Source: Nanobdellota archaeon (GTDB taxonomy: Archaea > Nanobdellota > Nanobdellia > Woesearchaeales > UBA9642). Taken from it: 64,000 nt of DNA. The notes beneath the pieces were generated by a model. That model made no database searches. It was given only the letters and a program-made list of their open reading frames with translations, and was not told the origin of the DNA. Positions within the stretch are counted from its first letter, which is position 1. Each line of letters opens with the position of its first letter. Shown piece after piece: positions 2,924-46,526 of this stretch. The stretch is taken from assembly GCA_021813435.1 (NCBI GenBank), contig JAKAKR010000004.1:120972-184971 (forward strand). The letters run 5' to 3'. Both the position numbers and the translations under genes were made by a program.

Positions 2924-3795
2924 TCCATCAATTTTTTCGTGATGGCAAAATATTCGCGTGTAAGGATTGGATTATCCAAATCAATGGTTTTCCAGTCCGG
3001 ACCGGAATCGATGATTTCCTGCACTTTTGCAATCTCGAATTTCTTGAACAGATTGAAAAACATGATGAGCAGATCACTGATGCTGCGGAATGCCGCGACC
3101 TTTCGCTTGTCAATCGCAAGTTTTTGCGCTGACACGGTTTTGAATACCCGCTTGTACGAGTCTCCAATATTTTCGAGTGAATCCACAAAAACATAGAGTG
3201 AGGTGCTGGTGCCGTCTTTGGGGTTGATGTTGATGATCCGGCGGCAAATGTCGGCAAGATCATTGATGCGTTTGTCGCGCTGCACGAGTCCTGCAATCTT
3301 TTCCCATTCCTTTTTCTGCCAGAGTTGCACAAAATCATCGTTGAGACAGTAGATCTCTTTCATGAGCGCAATGATCTGCTCACTCAATTTCGATTCAGAA
3401 ACAGTTCCTGGAACAACGAGTGTTATTTTTGCAGGGAATTCCTGCCTTTCAAAAAAGATATGTTCAGTCTTTTCATAGAGATCGAGCTTTTTTTCAGAGA
3501 TGATGCGCTGGATTTCATCATATTGGGTCTGATTCTCACACTCGAGGATAATCAGTTCATATCCTTTCTTATAGCATCCGCCGATGATCTTATCAATCAT
3601 TGCAGGATTGATTCCGCGCAGGTTGAGATAGCATTCCTGTAATTTGATCTGACTATTTGCTTTGATGATGAGCGAATCGCCGTATTCGACTACAGAAATC
3701 TTGTCTCCTTTTCTGAGACCGTATTTTGTGATCCAATTCTTCGGGAGCGTCACACACCAACTTGCATTTCCAAACATGACAATACTCCGCTCCAT
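2890..3795 (-). CDS. AbrB/SpoVT-type swapped-hairpin domain fused to PhoU-like domain (archaeal phosphate-uptake-regulator-like)
   Basis: ORF 2890..3915; probable start at MERSIVMFGNASWCVTLPKNWITKYGLRKGDKISV (AbrB-like N-terminal barrel); helical C-terminal region typical of PhoU-like archaeal regulators. Confidence 0.5.
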   Translation of the reverse strand: MERSIVMFGNASWCVTLPKNWITKYGLRKGDKISVVEYGDSLIIKANSQIKLQECYLNLRGINPAMIDKIIGGCYKKGYELIILECENQTQYDEIQRIISEKKLDLYEKTEHIFFERQEFPAKITLVVPGTVSESKLSEQIIALMKEIYCLNDDFVQLWQKKEWEKIAGLVQRDKRINDLADICRRIININPKDGTSTSLYVFVDSLENIGDSYKRVFKTVSAQKLAIDKRKVAAFRSISDLLIMFFNLFKKFEIAKVQEIIDSGPDWKTIDLDNPILTREYFAITKKLMDCLSTLLVANI

Positions 3796-4043: not shown

Positions 4044-4115
4044 GCGGGTATAGCCAAGCGGTAAGGCAGCCGCCTGCAGAGCGGCCATTCCAGGGTTCAA
4101 ATCCCTGTACCCGCT
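4044..4115 (+). tRNA. tRNA-Cys: tRNA-Cys (anticodon GCA), CCA not encoded
   Basis: Cloverleaf read directly: acceptor GCGGGTA/TACCCGC, D arm GCC-AAGCGGTAA-GGC, anticodon stem GCCGC/GCGGC with loop CTGCAGA (GCA at 4076-4078), variable CATTC, T arm CAGGG-TTCAAAT-CCCTG, discriminator T. Confidence 0.9.
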
Positions 4116-4116
4116 T

Positions 4117-4350
4117 ATGACTCTTATTATTCCGGGGAGATACCGGCATTTCAAGGGCAAAGAATATGAAGTTCTCGGTGTAGGACGTCATTCTGAAACA
4201 CTCGAGGAATTTGTCATCTACCGTGCGTTATATGAATCTGCGGAATTCGGAAAGCATGCATTATGGGTCCGCCCGCTCAAGATGTTTACGCAGCACGTTG
4301 AGAAAGAAGGATACTCAGGACCAAGATTTTTCCTAATCAGCAAAGATTGA
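4117..4350 (+). CDS. DUF1653-family small protein
   Basis: YRHFKGKEYEVLGV...VIYRALY...LWVRPLKMF matches DUF1653 consensus; starts 2 nt after tRNA-Cys. Confidence 0.75.
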   Translation: MTLIIPGRYRHFKGKEYEVLGVGRHSETLEEFVIYRALYESAEFGKHALWVRPLKMFTQHVEKEGYSGPRFFLISKD

Positions 4351-5108
4351 CTCTCATTGACGATGCGATACTATTCGAGTGAGGATTTCCAGCCCATGCC
4401 GTCAATAAATCCGATTGTTTTCATCGATCAGTTCTGGAACTGCCGTTATAACAATGTCTTGGAATTATAGTTGCGGACATAACTACGCTATGATTTAGCG
4501 TCTTCTCGCTCTCATCGAAGTGTAAGCGGAGTATTGTCATCTCCGAAGGAGCCAACCCTCTGACAATGTTCTAAAATTGTCGGATATTCGCTCGCCTTAG
4601 GACGCTAAATGATAAGAAACTTTTGTCTACAACTATTACTTGCCTGTATCCTTTGCGTATTGATCTGTAAATTTTGTTGAAGAAAATTTTTCCCTGTATA
4701 CCACCAATAGTTGAATCTGCTTGATGGCGCATCGATCATGACTCTTTTGGCTTCAAAAAGTGCAGCAGATGTGCCTTTTTCAGTTTTAATTTGTATTAAG
4801 TAATCCCCTTGGTTATCGTAAGAACTTTTTTGAACGCCGGTGTATACTGCAAGTATAGTGACTGTTGCGAGTTTTCCCCAATGTTTTTTAAGAAGTGTAG
4901 AGAGACTCAGTTATATCCACTTAGAAGTGGTATTCTATTTATACATTTTATTTCAATTATTGTTTTAATCGTAGTTTCTTCTTACAATCGATAGCTTTAA
5001 ATATAACTTAATCTGATAATCAGAATTTTATTCAGTAATGAATAAGTTGATTCAAATTATCAAATAAAGAAATCTTATATCAGCAGTTTTTACTGATTTT
5101 CAGATAAA

Positions 5109-5399
5109 ATGAAGAAATTTGCTCGGCTTGTACAATGCGACTCGCGTGGGCAGATTGTTATACCAAAAGAGGTCAGACAGGAGCTAGGTATTGAAGAGGG
5201 GGCGGGGTTTTACCTTTATGTTATTGAAAATGAAGGGATACTTCTCAAGACAATACCATCTAAAGAGTTCTCAGAGCACACTCATATGATCAAGGAGATA
5301 GAAGTCAATGCAGAGAAAATATCTGTCTCGAAAAAGAATCTTGACGCAAGTGTCCAGAATTACAAGAAAAAAGAGCGAGGTAACCTCCAAAGAATCTAG
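5109..5399 (+). CDS. AbrB/MazE/SpoVT-family DNA-binding protein
   Basis: N-terminus VQCDSRGQIVIPKEVRQELGIEEG = swapped-hairpin motif (SRGxIxIPKEIR). Confidence 0.65.
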   Translation: MKKFARLVQCDSRGQIVIPKEVRQELGIEEGAGFYLYVIENEGILLKTIPSKEFSEHTHMIKEIEVNAEKISVSKKNLDASVQNYKKKERGNLQRI

Positions 5400-38198: not shown

Positions 38199-38249
38199 TC
38201 ATTCCTTCAATTCCCAAACATTTTTAAAATCCCTCGTCATTCGATAGAT

Positions 38250-38984
38250 ATGCTTAAACTCTACAACACGCTTACGCGTACGAAAGAAGAATTCAAACCG
38301 ATTCATGCAGGAAAGGTCGGTATGTATACCTGCGGCCCGACCGTGTATTATTTTGCGCATATCGGAAATCTTCGCGCATATCTCTTTGAAGATATCCTTA
38401 AGCGTGTTCTTGAATATAATAAATATCAAGTCAATCATGTCATGAACATCACTGATGTCGGCCATCTTACAAGTGACGCTGATGAAGGCGAAGATAAGAT
38501 GCTGAAAGGCGCAAAGCGTGAGGGAAAGAGCGTCTGGGAGATTGCAAAATTCTATGAGGAAGCATTCTTTGCAGACCTACGGAAATTACACATCATTTAT
38601 CCATCAATTACATGCCGCGCAACAGAACATATTCCAGAAATGATTGCATTAATCAAACGCATTGAGCATAATGGTTACACCTACATTGCGAATGGTAATG
38701 TATATTTTGATATTGCTAAATTTAAGCATTATGGCGACCTTGCACGATTGAACCTTGACGAACTCAAAGCAGGAGCAAGAATTGCTGTCGATGAACATAA
38801 GCATAATCCACAGGACTTTGTCTTATGGTTCACTAAATCAAAATTTGATAATCAGGAGATGAAATGGGATGCCGTTTTTGAATTTACTCTTACAGATGAA
38901 GAATATGAGAAGCTAAAAGAGTTTGCAACCACAAGCAAAAACGTAGATATCATTCACACAGAAGAGGTTGAAAATGATATCTAA
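38250..38984 (+). CDS. cysS: cysteinyl-tRNA synthetase, N-terminal fragment (HIGH motif, catalytic domain first half)
   Basis: MYTCGPTVYYFAHIGNLRAY (CGPTVY + HIGH-type motif), FVLWFTKSKFDNQEMKWD region; CysRS homology stops at ~38870 (KWD), remaining 38 codons are insertion-derived. Confidence 0.85.
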   Translation: MLKLYNTLTRTKEEFKPIHAGKVGMYTCGPTVYYFAHIGNLRAYLFEDILKRVLEYNKYQVNHVMNITDVGHLTSDADEGEDKMLKGAKREGKSVWEIAKFYEEAFFADLRKLHIIYPSITCRATEHIPEMIALIKRIEHNGYTYIANGNVYFDIAKFKHYGDLARLNLDELKAGARIAVDEHKHNPQDFVLWFTKSKFDNQEMKWDAVFEFTLTDEEYEKLKEFATTSKNVDIIHTEEVENDI

Positions 38985-39901
38985 ACATTTATGCAAAGGT
39001 GGTTGCGGTAATCCTGCTTCTCATAAGGGATGGTGTAAGATTAAATGGAGATCTGGCAAAAAATTTGGTGTAGACTGTCCAGTAATTGAAGCAAAAAGAG
39101 CTAAATCACTTTCATCATTTAGAACTAGAGAAGCAAAATTAGGTAAAAATCCTATGCAAAATCCTAAAATATGTAAGAAAAATCATTCCTTGGCAAGAAA
39201 TAGAAAAGCTGCTGAAACTTTGAAACAATTAGGTGAAAAAGGCTTATTACCGCAGCAGACAGAAAACAAAGAGCTAAAAGAAAAAAGAAGACTTAAAAAC
39301 CAAAAGGCTCTTCAGAAGATGTGGAAAGAGGGCAGGCACCCTTTACAATCTAAATCTAAAGAAGAACTTAACATAATTAGGAAAAAAATATCCAACACAC
39401 TAAAGGATTTAGCAGACATGGGAGAGCTTCCTGTACAGAATTTTAGTCAAGAAAAGAAGAGATCAATTGCGAAAAAAGTCTCTGAAAAGTTAAGAGAAGG
39501 AATTAGAACTGGGAGAATTAAGCTGTCTCCCGGATGGAAGAAAGTCGCATATAAAGACAAAATTTTAAGATCTAATTGGGAAAAGGAAACAGCCCAATTT
39601 TTAGATGCTCATAAAATACATTGGGAATACGAATCTTTAATTTTGCCATATTACGATACTTCTAGAGATAGAGTGGCGTATACAATTCCCGATTTTTATT
39701 TACCGAAATATCATGTAGTTATTGAAGTTAAAAGCAATGGTTTAATAAATTCTGTACAGACTAAAGATAAGATGAGTGGAATAACTAATTTAGGCTATAG
39801 AACATTTCTGTTCGGTAAAAGACAAATCAAACTAATGAAGAATGAAAACATCACCATTATTAAGGCGATAAAAAATGAAAAAAGTTAAAGTAAAAATGAC
39901 T
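38871..39901 (+). mobile_element. ~1 kb insertion splitting cysS, carrying a PD-(D/E)xK nuclease gene (homing-endonuclease-like element)
   Basis: CysRS homology interrupted between KWD (38862-38870) and GYPGWH (from 39902); the three ORFs are in three different frames with short overlaps. Confidence 0.6.
38968..39888 (+). CDS. Zn-ribbon + Lys-rich linker + PD-(D/E)xK nuclease (free-standing homing-endonuclease-like)
   Basis: [16 protein letters not shown] Cys/His cluster; C-terminal IPDFYLP...VIEVKS = PD...ExK nuclease signature; Lys-rich and AT-rich. Confidence 0.6.
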
Positions 39902-40666
39902 GGATATCCGGGCTGGCATATTGAATGTTCAGCTATGAGCATGAAATATCTTGGCGAGCATTTTGATATCCATTGCGGCGGGATAGACCATATTCCAGTC
40001 CATCATACAAATGAGATTGCGCAATCAGAAGCTGCGACTGGAAAGAAATGGGTCAATTATTGGATGCATAATGAGTTCCTTGTCATGGACAAGGGAAAAA
40101 TGTCAAAGTCTGCAGGCGGGATATTGACTATTGCAACACTTGAAAAAGAGGGGTATGATCCAGTTGATTACCGCTATCTCACCCTCAATACACAATATCG
40201 CATACCCTTGACATTCAGTTATGAATCGCTTGCTGCAGCACAGAATGCGTTTAAGAACCTGAAGAATAAGATTGTTGAATACAAAAAAGATACTTCTGCA
40301 ATTGAGGATGGACATGTAAAAAATATGGATGAATACCGTGCTGATTTTCTCGAATCCATCAATGACGATCTCAACATGCCCAAAGCACTTGCAGTATTAT
40401 GGAATGTCATTACAGATAAGACATTAAATAATCATGAAAAATATGTGCTCGCACTAGAATTTGATAAAATCTTTGGATTAGGATTTGAACATCTCGTTGA
40501 GGAACAGATTGAAATCCCGAACGATATCCAGAAGATCATTGACGAACGCATACATGCACGAAAGGCTAAGGATTGGAAGAAATCCGACGAACTACGCGAT
40601 TTGTTGAAATCAAAAGGATACGCCGTCGATGATATTGCGCAAGGATCAAAGGTGAAAAAGATCTGA
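39875..40666 (+). CDS. cysS: cysteinyl-tRNA synthetase, C-terminal fragment (KMSKS motif, anticodon-binding domain)
   Basis: [42 protein letters not shown]; own ATG (MKKVKVKMT leader) overlapping nuclease stop. Confidence 0.85.
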
Positions 40667-45055: not shown

Positions 45056-46165
45056 TCATGATTTGATGGATTCAATATTTTTCTTTGAATGGTCTCTTAA
45101 ATATTTATTATATTCTTTTGTTGATAAATTATTAGAGAGAATGTCTGTGTATGGCGTTAAGATTCTCTGCCGTAGTTTGTAGCTGTTAGCGTGTTTTATG
45201 TGTGCTATCCATCCTTCGATGGTGTCGTAGACTTTATCGTATTCAATTTGTTTGTTTTGATATTTCGTAATGAGCAGTGATAATTTCTTTCTGAATTTTC
45301 TGCTGTTTCTTTTTGCAAGGAGTTTGTGATGTGGGTAGATTCTTATTCCTAAGAATCCTACGCCACGTTTTAGGAATGATATTTTTGTTTTTTCTGGATG
45401 AAGCTCTAGGTGCAGGTTTTCTTTAAGGAATTGATTAATTTGTGTTTTATAATCTTCGAGTTTTTCAAGGTGTTCGTCCATGATTACAAAATCATCAACA
45501 TATCTGATGTAATAGTTTACGCGGAGTTTGTGTTTGATAAACCAATCTAATTCATCAAGGTAAATATTTGCAAAAAATTGGCTTGTGAAATTTCCGAGCG
45601 GCATCCCTTTCCTTCTGTTTCTTGTTTGGTGGTTGCTTAGGATTATTCTTATGAGGTTGATGAGTTTTTTATCCTTAATCTTTCTTTGAAGTAAGGTTAT
45701 AAGAATATTGTGGTCTACATTGTCAAAGTAGTGTTTGATATCCGCTTTAAGTATATAACAATTTCTTGTGTTGTTTTGTGATGCTTTCTGTTTGAATTCT
45801 TCGAATCGTTTTATTGCTTTGAGTGTTCCTTTTCCTTTGCGGTTTGCGTAAGAATCGTGGATGAATGTTTTATCGAATAGTGGTTCGATAATATTGCAGA
45901 TTGCGTGGTGTACGATTCTGTCTCTAAAATCCGATTTACTGATTTTTCTGGTCTTTGGATCTCTAAGAATGAATGTTTCTAGAGGTCTTGGCTCGTATAG
46001 TTCGAGTTCTAACTCTTTTTGCAACTGAACAAGATTCTCTTTAAGATTGTTTTCAAATTCTATGACGTACGGTTTTAGTGTCTTATGTTTACGCGCCTTT
46101 TTATACGCAAGGTAGAGGTTATCTTTTGAACAGATTAACGGGTAGAGTTGTTTGTATCTCTTCAT
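45056..46165 (-). CDS. diversity-generating retroelement (DGR) reverse transcriptase
   Basis: RT motifs ILKADIKHYFDNVDH, GMPLGNFTSQFFANIYL (DGR-typical [I/L]GxxxSQ instead of QGxxxSP), YVDDFVI; N-terminal LYLAYKKARKHK...FRDRIVHHAI typical of DGR RTs; template repeat 22 nt upstream of its start. Confidence 0.9.
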   Translation of the reverse strand: MKRYKQLYPLICSKDNLYLAYKKARKHKTLKPYVIEFENNLKENLVQLQKELELELYEPRPLETFILRDPKTRKISKSDFRDRIVHHAICNIIEPLFDKTFIHDSYANRKGKGTLKAIKRFEEFKQKASQNNTRNCYILKADIKHYFDNVDHNILITLLQRKIKDKKLINLIRIILSNHQTRNRRKGMPLGNFTSQFFANIYLDELDWFIKHKLRVNYYIRYVDDFVIMDEHLEKLEDYKTQINQFLKENLHLELHPEKTKISFLKRGVGFLGIRIYPHHKLLAKRNSRKFRKKLSLLITKYQNKQIEYDKVYDTIEGWIAHIKHANSYKLRQRILTPYTDILSNNLSTKEYNKYLRDHSKKNIESIKS

Positions 46166-46279: not shown

Positions 46280-46526
46280 CGATCTTTAGCCCTTTTGCTG
46301 TAACTCTTCACCATTGCTTCAAGATTTCGAAACTGATTCTACTCATTGTCGCAATTGTATGCTCAAAAATCGTAGATTTTTGGCACGCCAGAAATCCGCG
46401 ATTTCTCAGCGTTTTATGACGCTTAATAAGACGCCTTAGCAAAAGAGCGTGTAGCCCCGTACCCGCGCTTAATTCAGGTAAGTCAAGGCGGTGAGAAAAA
46501 TAAAAAGAATATTAAAAAGATTTCTA

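Follow-up and report, generated by a model that had tools for sequence, protein, structure and literature searches.

Split genes and free-standing homing endonucleases

The closest precedent for the locus described here is the nrdA gene of phage Aeh1, which the free-standing HNH homing endonuclease gene mobE splits into NrdA-a and NrdA-b (Friedrich 2007, Crona 2011, PMC3045599). For its activity, the split NrdA requires the tails brought in by mobE (PMC3045599). The same layout of half, free-standing endonuclease, half is found in the fractured genes (Dassa et al. 2009, PMC2677866). These mostly use split inteins, their hosts are mainly phage DNA-metabolism genes and not an aaRS, and their nucleases have a restriction-enzyme fold of the Vsr-like kind (EDxHD-type active site), in some cases with NUMOD3-type DNA-binding helices on the N-terminal side of the catalytic domain; one SbcD-like locus is intein-free, with a tail of 25 aa and a head of 9 aa where the gene is broken (PMC2677866). 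Restriction-endonuclease-like cores (PD-(D/E)xK or Vsr-like fold) are also used in homing by I-Ssp6803I and I-Bth0305I, which lie in group I introns. Nanoarchaeum equitans and other DPANN archaea have split protein genes, for example for AlaRS and reverse gyrase, in which essential single-chain enzymes are made as two polypeptides; their halves are unlinked and not known to be associated with a mobile element. Our search of the literature for a split cysS, or for CysRS with a homing endonuclease, found nothing.

Here, we analyzed a split cysS gene in a 64-kb stretch of archaeal DNA (the window). We conclude that the insert at 38871-39898 is most likely a mobile cassette whose spread a free-standing homing endonuclease drives; the cassette has split cysS, and its peptides probably rescue the function of the gene. 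The locus fits the Aeh1 NrdA type: the ORFs are separate, each with its own start and stop, and the halves, apparently translated independently, carry new, oppositely charged C- and N-terminal tails that are borne by the insert and missing from unsplit homologues. As in Aeh1, the endonuclease ORF overlaps the downstream half, and the insert is low in GC. Unlike Aeh1, the host is a cellular aaRS gene (of DPANN archaea, Omnitrophota, and CPR) and not a phage RNR, the nuclease is a PD-ExK enzyme like T7 endonuclease I and not an HNH enzyme, and the charge polarity is reversed, with an acidic tail at the C end of one half and a basic head at the N end of the other. Moreover, at least 41 distinct cassettes occupy one site in two domains of life, the conserved tails move with the nuclease and are predicted to form one folded mini-domain, and nuclease-free fused alleles exist. 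Compared with the fractured genes, split cysS has no split intein, its tail and head measure 37 and 8 aa, and its nuclease has, without exception, the canonical E-PD-ExK tetrad of T7 endonuclease I. That nuclease is free-standing, in contrast to I-Ssp6803I and I-Bth0305I, much nearer to T7 endonuclease I, and equipped with a Zn ribbon and four helical repeats. Whereas the N. equitans-type halves are scattered, the cysS halves flank and overlap the element that splits them. If the peptides do compensate for the split, this locus carries what was known from one phage gene over to cellular genomes and a whole family. It would suggest that neither an intron nor an intein is needed for a homing endonuclease to enter even a catalytic core, provided that compensating peptides come with it.

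Three overlapping ORFs at cysS

Anatomy and selection alike show that cysS has become three tightly overlapping ORFs, all on the forward (+) strand, as are all features given below. ORF reading bears out the initial annotation on this point: the N half (38250-38984, 244 aa), the nuclease ORF (38968-39888, 306 aa counted from a TTG), and the C half (39875-40666, 263 aa) lie in frames 0, 1, and 2, respectively, and overlap by 17 and 14 nt. Homologues of the nuclease begin at an ATG equivalent to 38974; the endonuclease gene thus counted spans 38974-39888 and encodes 304 aa, and the first overlap shrinks to 11 nt. DNA alignment with an intact relative also confirmed that CysRS homology breaks after KWD (38870) and resumes at GYPGWH (39902). 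Part 1 of the exon-like sequence (38250-38870, ending ...EMKWD) encodes the CysRS N-terminal core, which consists of the CP domain and the first Rossmann half, where CGPTVY and HIGN lie; the N half matches positions 2-183 of Pfam tRNA-synt_1e (E=7e-50). Part 2 (39899-40666) encodes the C-terminal core with the anticodon-binding and CysS_C domains; the C half matches positions 187-300 of tRNA-synt_1e (E=8e-40) and CysS_C. Alignment with intact CysRS upheld the claim that the halves keep all catalytic motifs: CGPTVY, HIGN, GWHIEC, HCGGIDH..HH, and KMSKS are present and align with invariant columns. The window also holds a tRNA-Cys gene, and no second cysS was found within its 64 kb.

The inserted cassette, delimited by DNA alignment with the empty allele L025, is 1,028 nt long (38871-39898) and comprises a tail, the endonuclease gene, and a head. 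The tail (38871-38984 including the stop codon) adds 37 aa with a net charge of -8 to the N half. The head, MKKVKVKM (39875-39898), adds 8 aa with a charge of +4 to the C half, and its ATG sits within the end of the endonuclease ORF. The cassette has a GC content of 32.7% where the exons have 39.8%; for GC3, the values are 25.7% and 38 to 39%. The initial annotation did not remark that the tail and head are part of the insert and share its conservation.

The three overlapping ORFs are probably carried on one transcript. At 38220-38229, some 25 nt before the cysS ATG, direct reading shows an A/T-rich box, ATTTTTAAAA, which may be an archaeal TATA box serving a leaderless transcript; no Shine-Dalgarno (SD)-like motif precedes the ATG at 38250. 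Upstream of the endonuclease ATG, by 8 to 12 nt and inside the tail codons, lies GAGGT. Across loci, SD-like motifs precede the internal starts in 24/41 and 24/42 cases, against a background of 17.5%. The C-half ATG in the window has no clear SD, and its position 14 nt before the endonuclease stop is consistent with termination-reinitiation coupling. Both the Met start of the C half and the start/stop overlaps are conserved across the split loci. Such a cysS is called as two fragments and a hypothetical protein, and it may score as missing or as a pseudogene in completeness and metabolic surveys.

An empty-site allele and the spread of the cassette

The nearest cysS relative lacks the cassette. 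This syntenic, intact allele (protein P0092, locus L025; 91% aa identity) reads KWD-SPWG-TGYPGWH across the site, and its empty-site DNA includes GAAATGGGATAGTCCATGGGGCACGGGATATCCGGGCTGGCAT. Part 1 is 94% identical to residues 1 to 208 of P0092 and part 2 is 90% identical to residues 212 to 466. In place of the cassette, the empty allele has the 12 nt AGTCCATGGGGC, encoding SPWG; the PWG-type loop noted at the outset as missing between KWD and PGWH is what the cassette replaces. The 120 best CysRS relatives are all intact single-chain proteins. The distribution of the cassette is sporadic, as 119 of the 120 lack the insert.

The insertion site is constant. In 61/61 related loci (17 genome loci, 43 metagenome loci, and one CPR genome, complete at 695 kb), the cysS halves bracket the nuclease at the SPWG site wherever flanks exist. 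Complete genomes with the cassette include CP179891.1, CP070780.1, and GCA_027347435.1. The initial annotation asked whether the insertion was lineage specific; comparison of cysS loci showed that it is not, since DPANN archaea, Omnitrophota, and CPR all carry it. The element is thus widespread and reaches into bacteria, and fused alleles free of the nuclease keep the tail and head, neither of which the annotation had mentioned. An assembly chimera, which it had named as a way for the split to prove spurious, is ruled out: independent assemblies from NCBI, ENA, and Logan show the arrangement on 14 contigs. Split cysS appears to be a naturally occurring example, replicated in evolution, of an essential aminoacyl-tRNA synthetase that functions as two chains.

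A T7-endonuclease-I-like nuclease with helical repeats

The endonuclease combines a Zn ribbon (38992-39078), four GxxPxQ helical repeats of about 30 aa each (39142-39510), and a T7-endonuclease-I-like PD-ExK core (39544-39813) with catalytic residues E205 (39580), D242 (39691), E253 (39724), and K255 (39730). We recovered 91 homologues. Across 34 homologues, the IPDF...IEVK motif and these four residues are invariant, in agreement with the PD-(D/E)xK assignment made originally. An AF2 model of the protein has a pLDDT of 88.9, with an α-β-β-β-β-α-β core at pLDDT >90. The family profile matched T7 endonuclease I (3cae; E=2.9e-6) and, weakly, I-Bth0305I (3r3p; E=0.012) in the PDB. A PHROG match was to "Holliday junction resolvase" (E=3.7e-10), and the match to Pfam Phage_endo_I (PF05367; 23.7 bits, E=4e-5) falls below the gathering cutoff of 29.1. 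Foldseek brought up the PD-(D/E)xK folds Vsr, TnsA, AbaSI, and RecE. As the helical repeats dominate the model, querying the PDB with all of it gave weak matches to such folds (best E=7e-3).

The repeats appear to be of a DNA-binding type. By eye, the pattern GxxPxQ...S.E..K.K[IV]S resembles NUMOD3, but membership in that family is not supported, as Pfam gave no match to NUMOD3 (PF07460) in the endonuclease even at E<=5. Together, the Zn ribbon, the four repeats, and the T7-endo-I-like core make up a new homing-endonuclease architecture, and the long conserved target of the enzyme could serve engineering.

Purifying selection and a decoupled history of the cassette

Substitution patterns show purifying selection on all three ORFs. 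Against the intact relative, dN/dS is 0.033 for the N core and 0.045 for the C core; for the endonuclease gene, it is 0.073. Between selected pairs of loci that both carry the insert, pN/pS is 0.18 to 0.43 for all three ORFs.

The cassette and its host gene differ in their divergence. Against L027, nucleotide identity is 80 to 92% in the cassette and 67 to 70% in the exons, and exon identity falls away from the junction, a gradient that could partly reflect strongly conserved motifs there rather than co-conversion. The corresponding pS values are 0.62 for the endonuclease gene, 0.41 for the tail, and 0.76 to 0.81 for the exons. In an Omnitrophota pair (L011 and L012), pS is 0.40 for the endonuclease gene and 0.77 to 0.90 for the host gene. 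Mean pairwise identity is 50% for the endonuclease and 44% for the host protein, and in cross-domain pairs it is about 50% versus about 35%. These identity and pS comparisons argue for a cassette history decoupled from that of the host gene, through horizontal spread and co-conversion. Much of the inheritance, on the other hand, is vertical because host and endonuclease identities correlate (rho 0.58). A cassette that is closer between lineages than its flanking exons and absent from the nearest relative bears the signature of a free-standing homing endonuclease. Its distribution is a record of gene movement between DPANN archaea and CPR/Omnitrophota bacteria. Thus, the original proposal that a homing-endonuclease-type gene split an aaRS gene gains support from the syntenic empty allele, the constant site, purifying selection, and the decoupled cassette.

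Tail and head peptides and a model for the split enzyme

The tail is missing from intact CysRS and conserved in all cassette loci, where tails are about 30 to 45 aa and heads 8 to 9 aa long. Over the 41 distinct cassettes, the mean net charge is -3.0 for the tail and +3.8 for the head. The head pattern M[KP]K[IV]K[IV]K is kept in every split locus. Part of the conservation at the end of the tail is forced by the overlapping start and SD of the endonuclease gene.

Fused alleles show the two peptides in one chain. P0182 has tail and head but no nuclease, and it has D where split heads have M. In its model, which rests on very few sequences covering the insert, the tail forms β1-α-β2, the head forms β3 of a hairpin, and the insertion point of the endonuclease gene falls in the β2-β3 loop (pLDDT 79 to 93). 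The tail and head of the fused allele are therein predicted to be one β-α-β-β mini-domain. In P0356, another fused allele, a tight GD turn occupies the insertion point; this allele came from a profile search with the tail-plus-head alignment, which returned mostly short CysRS fragments besides and is not a census of fused alleles.

We infer that the endonuclease acts in homing, as follows. It would cut intact cysS in or near the DNA for the universally conserved W-D-SPWG-x-G-x-PGWHIEC, and repair of the break from a cassette-bearing allele would copy in the whole cassette and replace the SPWG codons. The cassette-bearing allele would then be immune to cutting because the target is gone. Each CysRS half would be translated on its own. 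The acidic tail (...ILEVEDV-type) and the basic head (MKKVKVK) would fold together as a small β-α-β-β domain that replaces the tip of the SPWG hairpin, with the halves held non-covalently via the last two antiparallel strands. This would rebuild a composite active site with CGPTVY and HIGN from the N half and GWHIEC, HxGGxDxxxxHH, and KMSKS from the C half. Judging from conservation, charge, and the model of the fused allele, the insert peptides probably hold the halves together.

It is quite possible, although we stop short of calling it probable, that the acidic β-α-β tail and the basic β-strand head constitute a portable "split-protein zipper" carried by the endonuclease, which makes fission of CysRS, a single-chain and essential aaRS of class I, phenotypically neutral and stays behind as an insertion domain in CysRS re-fused after nuclease loss (P0182 and P0356). 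Neutral fission of this kind would explain how one cassette colonised the catalytic core of cysS in DPANN, CPR, and Omnitrophota. If so, the tail/head pair could be used as it stands in split-protein design, as a small heterodimerisation module.

Alternative explanations

The initial annotation left a choice between a functional split enzyme and a spliced intron; selection on all three ORFs upholds the former, and the latter fared poorly. If the insert, or the endonuclease ORF alone, were removed from the RNA as a group I/II or bulge-helix-bulge (BHB) intron, a single-chain CysRS like P0182 would result. This is very unlikely, even though P0182 does have tail and head in one chain and cysS of relatives contains, at another place, a genuine BHB mini-intron, which makes splicing of cysS mRNA plausible in these archaea. 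Rfam covariance models found no intron, with group I and group II ribozyme cores included, and no other relevant RNA in the whole window at the gathering threshold or in 38700-40050 at E<=10. For the BHB motif suggested at the insert borders, we required two 3-nt bulges separated by a 4-bp helix, with canonical cleavage restoring the frame; there were 0 in-frame candidates (H=4, h>=2, h'>=2) against 1.3 expected by chance. The head ATG/Met, moreover, is conserved only in split alleles (P0182 has Asp), the stop/start overlaps and SD-like motifs are conserved, and the same arrangement occurs in bacteria, which are not known to have the archaeal splicing endonuclease. Nor does splicing at the protein level hold up. 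Tail and head might be a split intein that ligates the CysRS halves in trans, and the layout is indeed that of the fractured genes (PMC2677866). Yet the first tail residue varies (A/C/F/P/T/V/D), no HN precedes the junction, and C/S/T is not conserved directly after the head. Intein halves are longer than a tail of about 30 to 45 aa or a head of 8 to 9 aa, and fused alleles keep both peptides, modelled as a folded mini-domain, in the chain. The early statement that this is not an intein therefore stands, on the three frames, the short tail and head, and the variable junction residues; these rule out an intein or split intein, and trans-splicing is the least probable of the explanations weighed here.

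A decaying pseudogene is very unlikely. On that reading, the insertion would have inactivated cysS, and a further cysS copy or SepRS/SepCysS elsewhere in the genome would supply Cys-tRNA. Only 64 kb of the genome is in view, so that redundancy elsewhere is possible, and SepRS is present in some DPANN, though rarely (PMC5424206). Against decay stand dN/dS values of 0.03 to 0.05 for both halves, the low pN/pS between insert-bearing pairs, and intact ORFs with all catalytic motifs in about 60 divergent loci, one of them in a closed 695-kb genome, with the Met start and tails conserved. Somewhat more can be said for an old, vertically inherited three-gene operon in which the nuclease is not homing but kept for a host role, e.g., as a partner in assembly or regulation. 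The nuclease is conserved to the same degree as the aaRS, with a dN/dS of 0.07, which is unusual for a purely selfish endonuclease gene; host and endonuclease distances correlate; and translation is tightly coupled. Domestication is nevertheless unlikely, as the nearest host relative lacks the cassette, synonymous divergence of the cassette is below that of the flanking exons in several pairs, and endonuclease identity exceeds host identity across domains in a cassette shared by DPANN, Omnitrophota, and CPR. In addition, the composition of the cassette is foreign to the host gene, and there are fused alleles that have no nuclease.

A mini-intron in cysS of relatives

Separately from the cassette, relatives carry a BHB mini-intron of 28 to 32 nt inside the CGPTVY codons of cysS. 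We rejected a GGG-to-GGG translational hop over this mini-insert, which would replace the invariant Pro and give a stop in L065. At the relaxed setting of H>=3, our BHB scorer found a frame-restoring solution, among alternatives, in the mini-introns of the relatives, and BHB cleavage restores CGPTVY in 6/6 relatives that have the mini-insert.

Organization of the split cysS locus

In the window, cysteinyl-tRNA synthetase (CysRS) is encoded on the + strand by an N-half ORF (38250-38984, 244 aa) and a C-half ORF (39875-40666, 263 aa) that flank an endonuclease ORF (38968-39888, 306 aa counted from TTG). The frames of the three ORFs all differ, and the overlaps are 17 nt (11 nt from ATG) and 14 nt; the endonuclease probably starts at the ATG at 38974, since its homologues begin MISKH/MSK. 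The N half matches positions 2 to 183 of the Pfam class I CysRS catalytic-domain model, and the C half matches positions 187 to 300 of the same model plus the CysS C-terminal domain (Pfam). The motifs CGPTVY and HIGN (N half) and GWHIEC, HCGGIDH..HH, and KMSKS (C half) all fall in alignment columns that do not vary among intact CysRS. The split gene described in the initial annotation was borne out in every detail.

The best CysRS homologue of the window, P0092, is a single chain of 466 aa that is 91% identical over aligned columns. Its gene lies in a locus, L025, with the same neighborhood as in the window (AsnC-type regulator, class II aaRS, and methyltransferase). In a DNA alignment, 12 nt of L025, AGTCCATGGGGC, are replaced by 1,028 nt in the window (38871-39898), with ∼85% identity flanking the insert on both sides. 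These borders indicate that the insert extends beyond the nuclease ORF: it also supplies the C-terminal 37 residues of the N half (AVFEF...ENDI; the tail) and the N-terminal 8 residues of the C half (MKKVKVKM; the head). Its GC content is 32.7% (GC3, 25.7%), versus 39.8% (GC3, 38 to 39%) in the flanking CysRS exons. The SPWG segment that it replaces is retained in the solved CysRS structures 3sp1 and 3tqo. A different, unrelated ∼30-aa insertion (MEWIFEGSRSSMLIDSSVRGTLSESEDATRGFPGWHIEC) is found at the same place in a CysRS fragment, P0360, which suggests that the SPWG hairpin tip tolerates insertions.

A T7 endonuclease I-like nuclease with repeats

The middle ORF has a subthreshold match to Pfam phage endonuclease I (E = 4e-5; 23.7 bits, cutoff 29.1) and 91 clustered homologues of about 270 to 410 aa. 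In an alignment of 34 homologues, cysteines C9, C13, C23, and C37 near the N terminus are at least 90% conserved, G-x-x-P-x-Q opens each of four tandem ∼30-aa repeats, and E205, P241-D242, E253, and K255 are invariant. The AlphaFold model (pLDDT 88.9) consists of a small β ribbon, four units of a short helix plus a long helix, and an α/β core. The family profile matches T7 endonuclease I (3cae; E = 2.9e-6) over a stretch that includes E...PD...ExK, residues that correspond to the T7 catalytic E20, D55, E65, and K67; the match to the homing endonuclease I-Bth0305I is weaker (E = 0.012). Foldseek matches of the model are weak and limited to PD-(D/E)xK-fold proteins (Vsr, TnsA, and AbaSI), and PHROGs annotates the nuclease domain as Holliday junction resolvase or endonuclease. 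The repeats have no NUMOD3 match and resemble it by eye only. An exhaustive profile search found only 14 full-length representatives at 50% clustering and >1,100 proteins with the nuclease domain under other N termini.

The endonucleases of loci L015 to L017 have an additional ∼100-aa N-terminal region. In L016 (=L069, Nanoarchaeota), a 202-aa HAD-hydrolase-like ORF (3154-3762; MIKAIIFDLGGVYF...) is placed between the N half and the 392-aa endonuclease with stop/start overlaps, so the cassette can carry cargo.

Distribution and mobility of the cassette

We collected 17 loci from one-genome-per-species contigs and 43 from metagenome contigs. Wherever flanks exist, the nuclease lies between the CysRS halves at the same position. 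Labeled hosts are Woese-, Pace-, Aenigmat-, and Nanoarchaeota, three metagenome-assembled genomes (MAGs) labeled Methanosarcinales, and three Omnitrophota bacteria; another homologue is on a closed 695-kb chromosome of Nealsonbacteria (CPR), among DnaB, RecR, L21p, and pol III tau. Among the 120 closest CysRS proteins, by contrast, every one is an intact single chain, and the insert is absent from 119.

Compared with the nearest cassette-bearing locus (L027/L028), nucleotide identity is 80% for the tail, 80% for the homing endonuclease gene (HEG), and 92% for the head, versus 70% for the N core and 67% for the C core, as the exons are called here. Exon identity is 0.87 at the junctions and drops to ∼0.6 with distance; pS is 0.41 in the tail and 0.62 in the HEG, and 0.81 and 0.76 in the exons. 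Between two Omnitrophota loci (L011 and L012), pS is 0.40 for the HEG and 0.77 to 0.90 for the host gene. Across 351 locus pairs, mean identity is 50% for the HEG and 44% for the host, and in archaeal-bacterial pairs it is about 50% and about 35%, respectively. The host is closer than the HEG in a few pairs, and HEG and host identities are only partly correlated (rho = 0.58). The host gene most like that of the window, in L025, lacks the cassette. On sequence comparison, the divergence and empty-site data together are as would be expected for a homing element that spreads with coconversion, although the junction-proximal identity may come partly from the strongly conserved motifs encoded there.

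The labels of the three MAGs titled "uncultured Methanosarcinales archaeon" (L005, L006, and L017) may be binning or taxonomy errors, since for both cysS and the endonuclease the nearest sequences are of the Woesearchaeota type. In L070 (Nealsonbacteria CP179891.1), a TFIIB/Zn-ribbon transcription-factor-like gene (4225-5127) adjoins the split cysS. In L038, a related, unlabeled metagenome locus, the HEG resembles those encoding P0025/P0027. The cysS N half of L038 is 56% identical to that of the window, versus about 38% for Omnitrophota. The transcription-factor-like neighbor in L070 and this figure from L038 hint that a block including cysS came from a DPANN archaeon.

Origin and expression of the split gene

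The best explanation, and a probable one, is fission of cysS by a homing-endonuclease cassette. The initial annotation's main interpretation, fission of an aaRS gene by such an element, stands, given the empty site in L025, the constant insertion site, and the low dN/dS of both halves (N core, 0.033; C core, 0.045; both versus the intact relative). An assembly chimera is ruled out by independent assemblies from NCBI, ENA, and Logan, in which 14 contigs show the same arrangement. The alternative of a spliced intron finds no support: the insert has no Rfam intron match, its borders have 0 in-frame bulge-helix-bulge (BHB) candidates versus 1.3 expected, and the arrangement also occurs in bacteria. 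With relaxed thresholds, the same BHB scorer recovers the frame-restoring solution in the mini-introns of relatives, mostly not as the top-ranked one. An intein, already rejected in the initial annotation, is excluded by the differing frames, the short lengths of the peptides, and the variable junction residues.

Besides the low dN/dS of both halves, several findings favor a functional split gene. The dN/dS of the HEG is 0.073; between cassette-bearing pairs, uncorrected pN/pS is 0.18 to 0.43 for all three ORFs, with pS saturated. No catalytic-motif decay was seen in any cassette-bearing locus. The only tRNA gene in the 64 kb is tRNA-Cys (GCA; 4044-4115, +), the split enzyme's substrate, and the 64-kb window contains no second cysS. 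SepRS is reportedly uncommon in DPANN (PMC5424206).

The HEG ATG is overlapped by the N-half stop in most loci (4 to 13 nt) and the C-half ATG by the HEG stop in 37 of 41 distinct cassettes (4 to 20 nt). SD-like 4-mers are found upstream of the HEG ATG in 24/41 cassettes and of the C-half ATG in 24/42 (background, 17.5%). In the window, GAGGT is found upstream of the HEG ATG; no clear SD marks the C-half ATG, suggesting coupling to HEG translation. The head starts with Met in every split allele, versus Asp in the fused allele P0182.

C halves of many cassette-bearing hosts (L019 to L021, L043, L044, and L054 to L063) contain (F/G)RPGWHIEDTAI. The Cys at the position of this Asp is a zinc ligand in E. 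coli CysRS; the ligand is thus replaced by Asp in this divergent CysRS-like clade.

Tail, head, and fused alleles

All loci have a conserved tail start (h-x-E-h-x-h-(S/T)-D-E-E-Y-E-x-L-K...), a tail end of one of two forms (N-x-N-h-x-I-L-E-V-(E/K)-D-V or N-N-D-E-E-F-L-K-L-N-K-I...), and the head M-(K/P)-K-(I/V)-K-(I/V)-K; overlap with the HEG start places a further constraint on the final codons of the tail. Mean net charges in 41 cassettes are −3.0 (tail) and +3.8 (head), and those in the window are −8 and +4.

Two natural proteins have tail and head in one chain without the nuclease: P0182 (...NVKILEEVKGSKKSDKKVRVNFRGFPGWH, also given as ILEEVKGSKKSDKKVRVNF), full-length at 509 aa and found on three independent contigs (L022, 4001-5530; L023; L024), and P0356 (...ILEVKEEGDKYRVKFNFVGFPGWH, also given as ILEVKEEGDKYRVKFNF), a 146-aa fragment only. 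Such alleles are either scars of nuclease loss or the ancestral target. In the AlphaFold model of P0182 (pLDDT 87, pTM 0.84; insert pLDDT about 79 to 93; few alignment rows cover the insert), the insert is predicted to form β1 (residues 210-219), a helix (220-232), β2 (236-242), a loop (243-248), and β3 (249-260). The nuclease gene of split alleles sits exactly in the predicted β2-β3 loop. In the split enzyme, pairing of the acidic β2 (N fragment) with the basic β3 (C fragment) would replace the SPWG hairpin tip and tie the fragments together. From this model, we infer that the halves, translated separately, may reassemble through the cassette-borne peptides.

The closest known case is phage Aeh1 nrdA, which is split by the HNH endonuclease mobE; the oppositely charged tails brought by the insert are essential for activity, and it was predicted in that study that tails of this kind could be general (PMC3045599). 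The "fractured genes" of Dassa et al. include one intein-free SbcD-like locus, whose tail and head are 25 and 9 aa long; the endonucleases are Vsr-like, some with NUMOD3 motifs (PMC2677866). Unlike in these cases, the host is a cellular aaRS, and the nuclease combines a T7-endonuclease-I-like PD-ExK domain with a Zn ribbon and four repeats. The cassette extends across a whole family and across domains, always at one site; its tails are conserved, cotransferred with the nuclease, and predicted to form a single folded minidomain, and re-fused alleles exist that keep the module. Full-text literature searches turned up neither a split cysS nor an endonuclease in this gene.

A putative mini-intron in cysS of relatives and another window feature

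Six distinct archaeal cysS genes that bear the cassette have 28 to 32 extra, frame-shifting nt within the CGP|TVY codons: L006 (∼3348-3379), L015 (∼3039-3070; =L048), L016 (∼2494-2522; =L069), L018 (∼1311-1339; =L051), L045 (∼349-381), and L065 (∼509-538). The window cysS is uninterrupted there (38331-38348). All six fold into an outer helix of exon 1 (GCGG) with exon 2 (CCGU), a 3-nt bulge, a central GGCC/GGCC helix, a 3-nt AAA bulge, and a 7- to 11-bp hairpin. The central helix has four Watson-Crick pairs in L018 and three plus G·A in the others, with ACC:GGU in L065. In the six-sequence alignment, covariation is strong, with 92.7% of cells paired and two-sided changes at 6 pairs; 0/500 shuffles reached the observed values, and slid controls pair at 28 to 55%. 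In crenarchaeal cbf5 pre-mRNA, the intron is cut between the second and third bulge nucleotides (PMC2738675). Applied here, this rule yields ...TGC GGG CCA A|CC GTN TAT (CGPTVY) in 6/6, so that the predicted cut would recover both the reading frame and the invariant Thr codon (A|CC) in each. By its sequence and fold, this short intervening sequence looks like a putative BHB mini-intron in a protein-coding gene (mRNA) of DPANN archaea. To our knowledge, a BHB intron in mRNA is otherwise established only for crenarchaeal cbf5.

In the window, ∼4.4 kb downstream of cysS and past NuoE/NuoF/Fe-hydrogenase-like genes, an Rfam RT-16 RNA match (46281-46488, −; 55.8 bits, above the gathering threshold) lies immediately upstream of a 369-aa RVT_1 reverse-transcriptase ORF (about 45056-46165, −).
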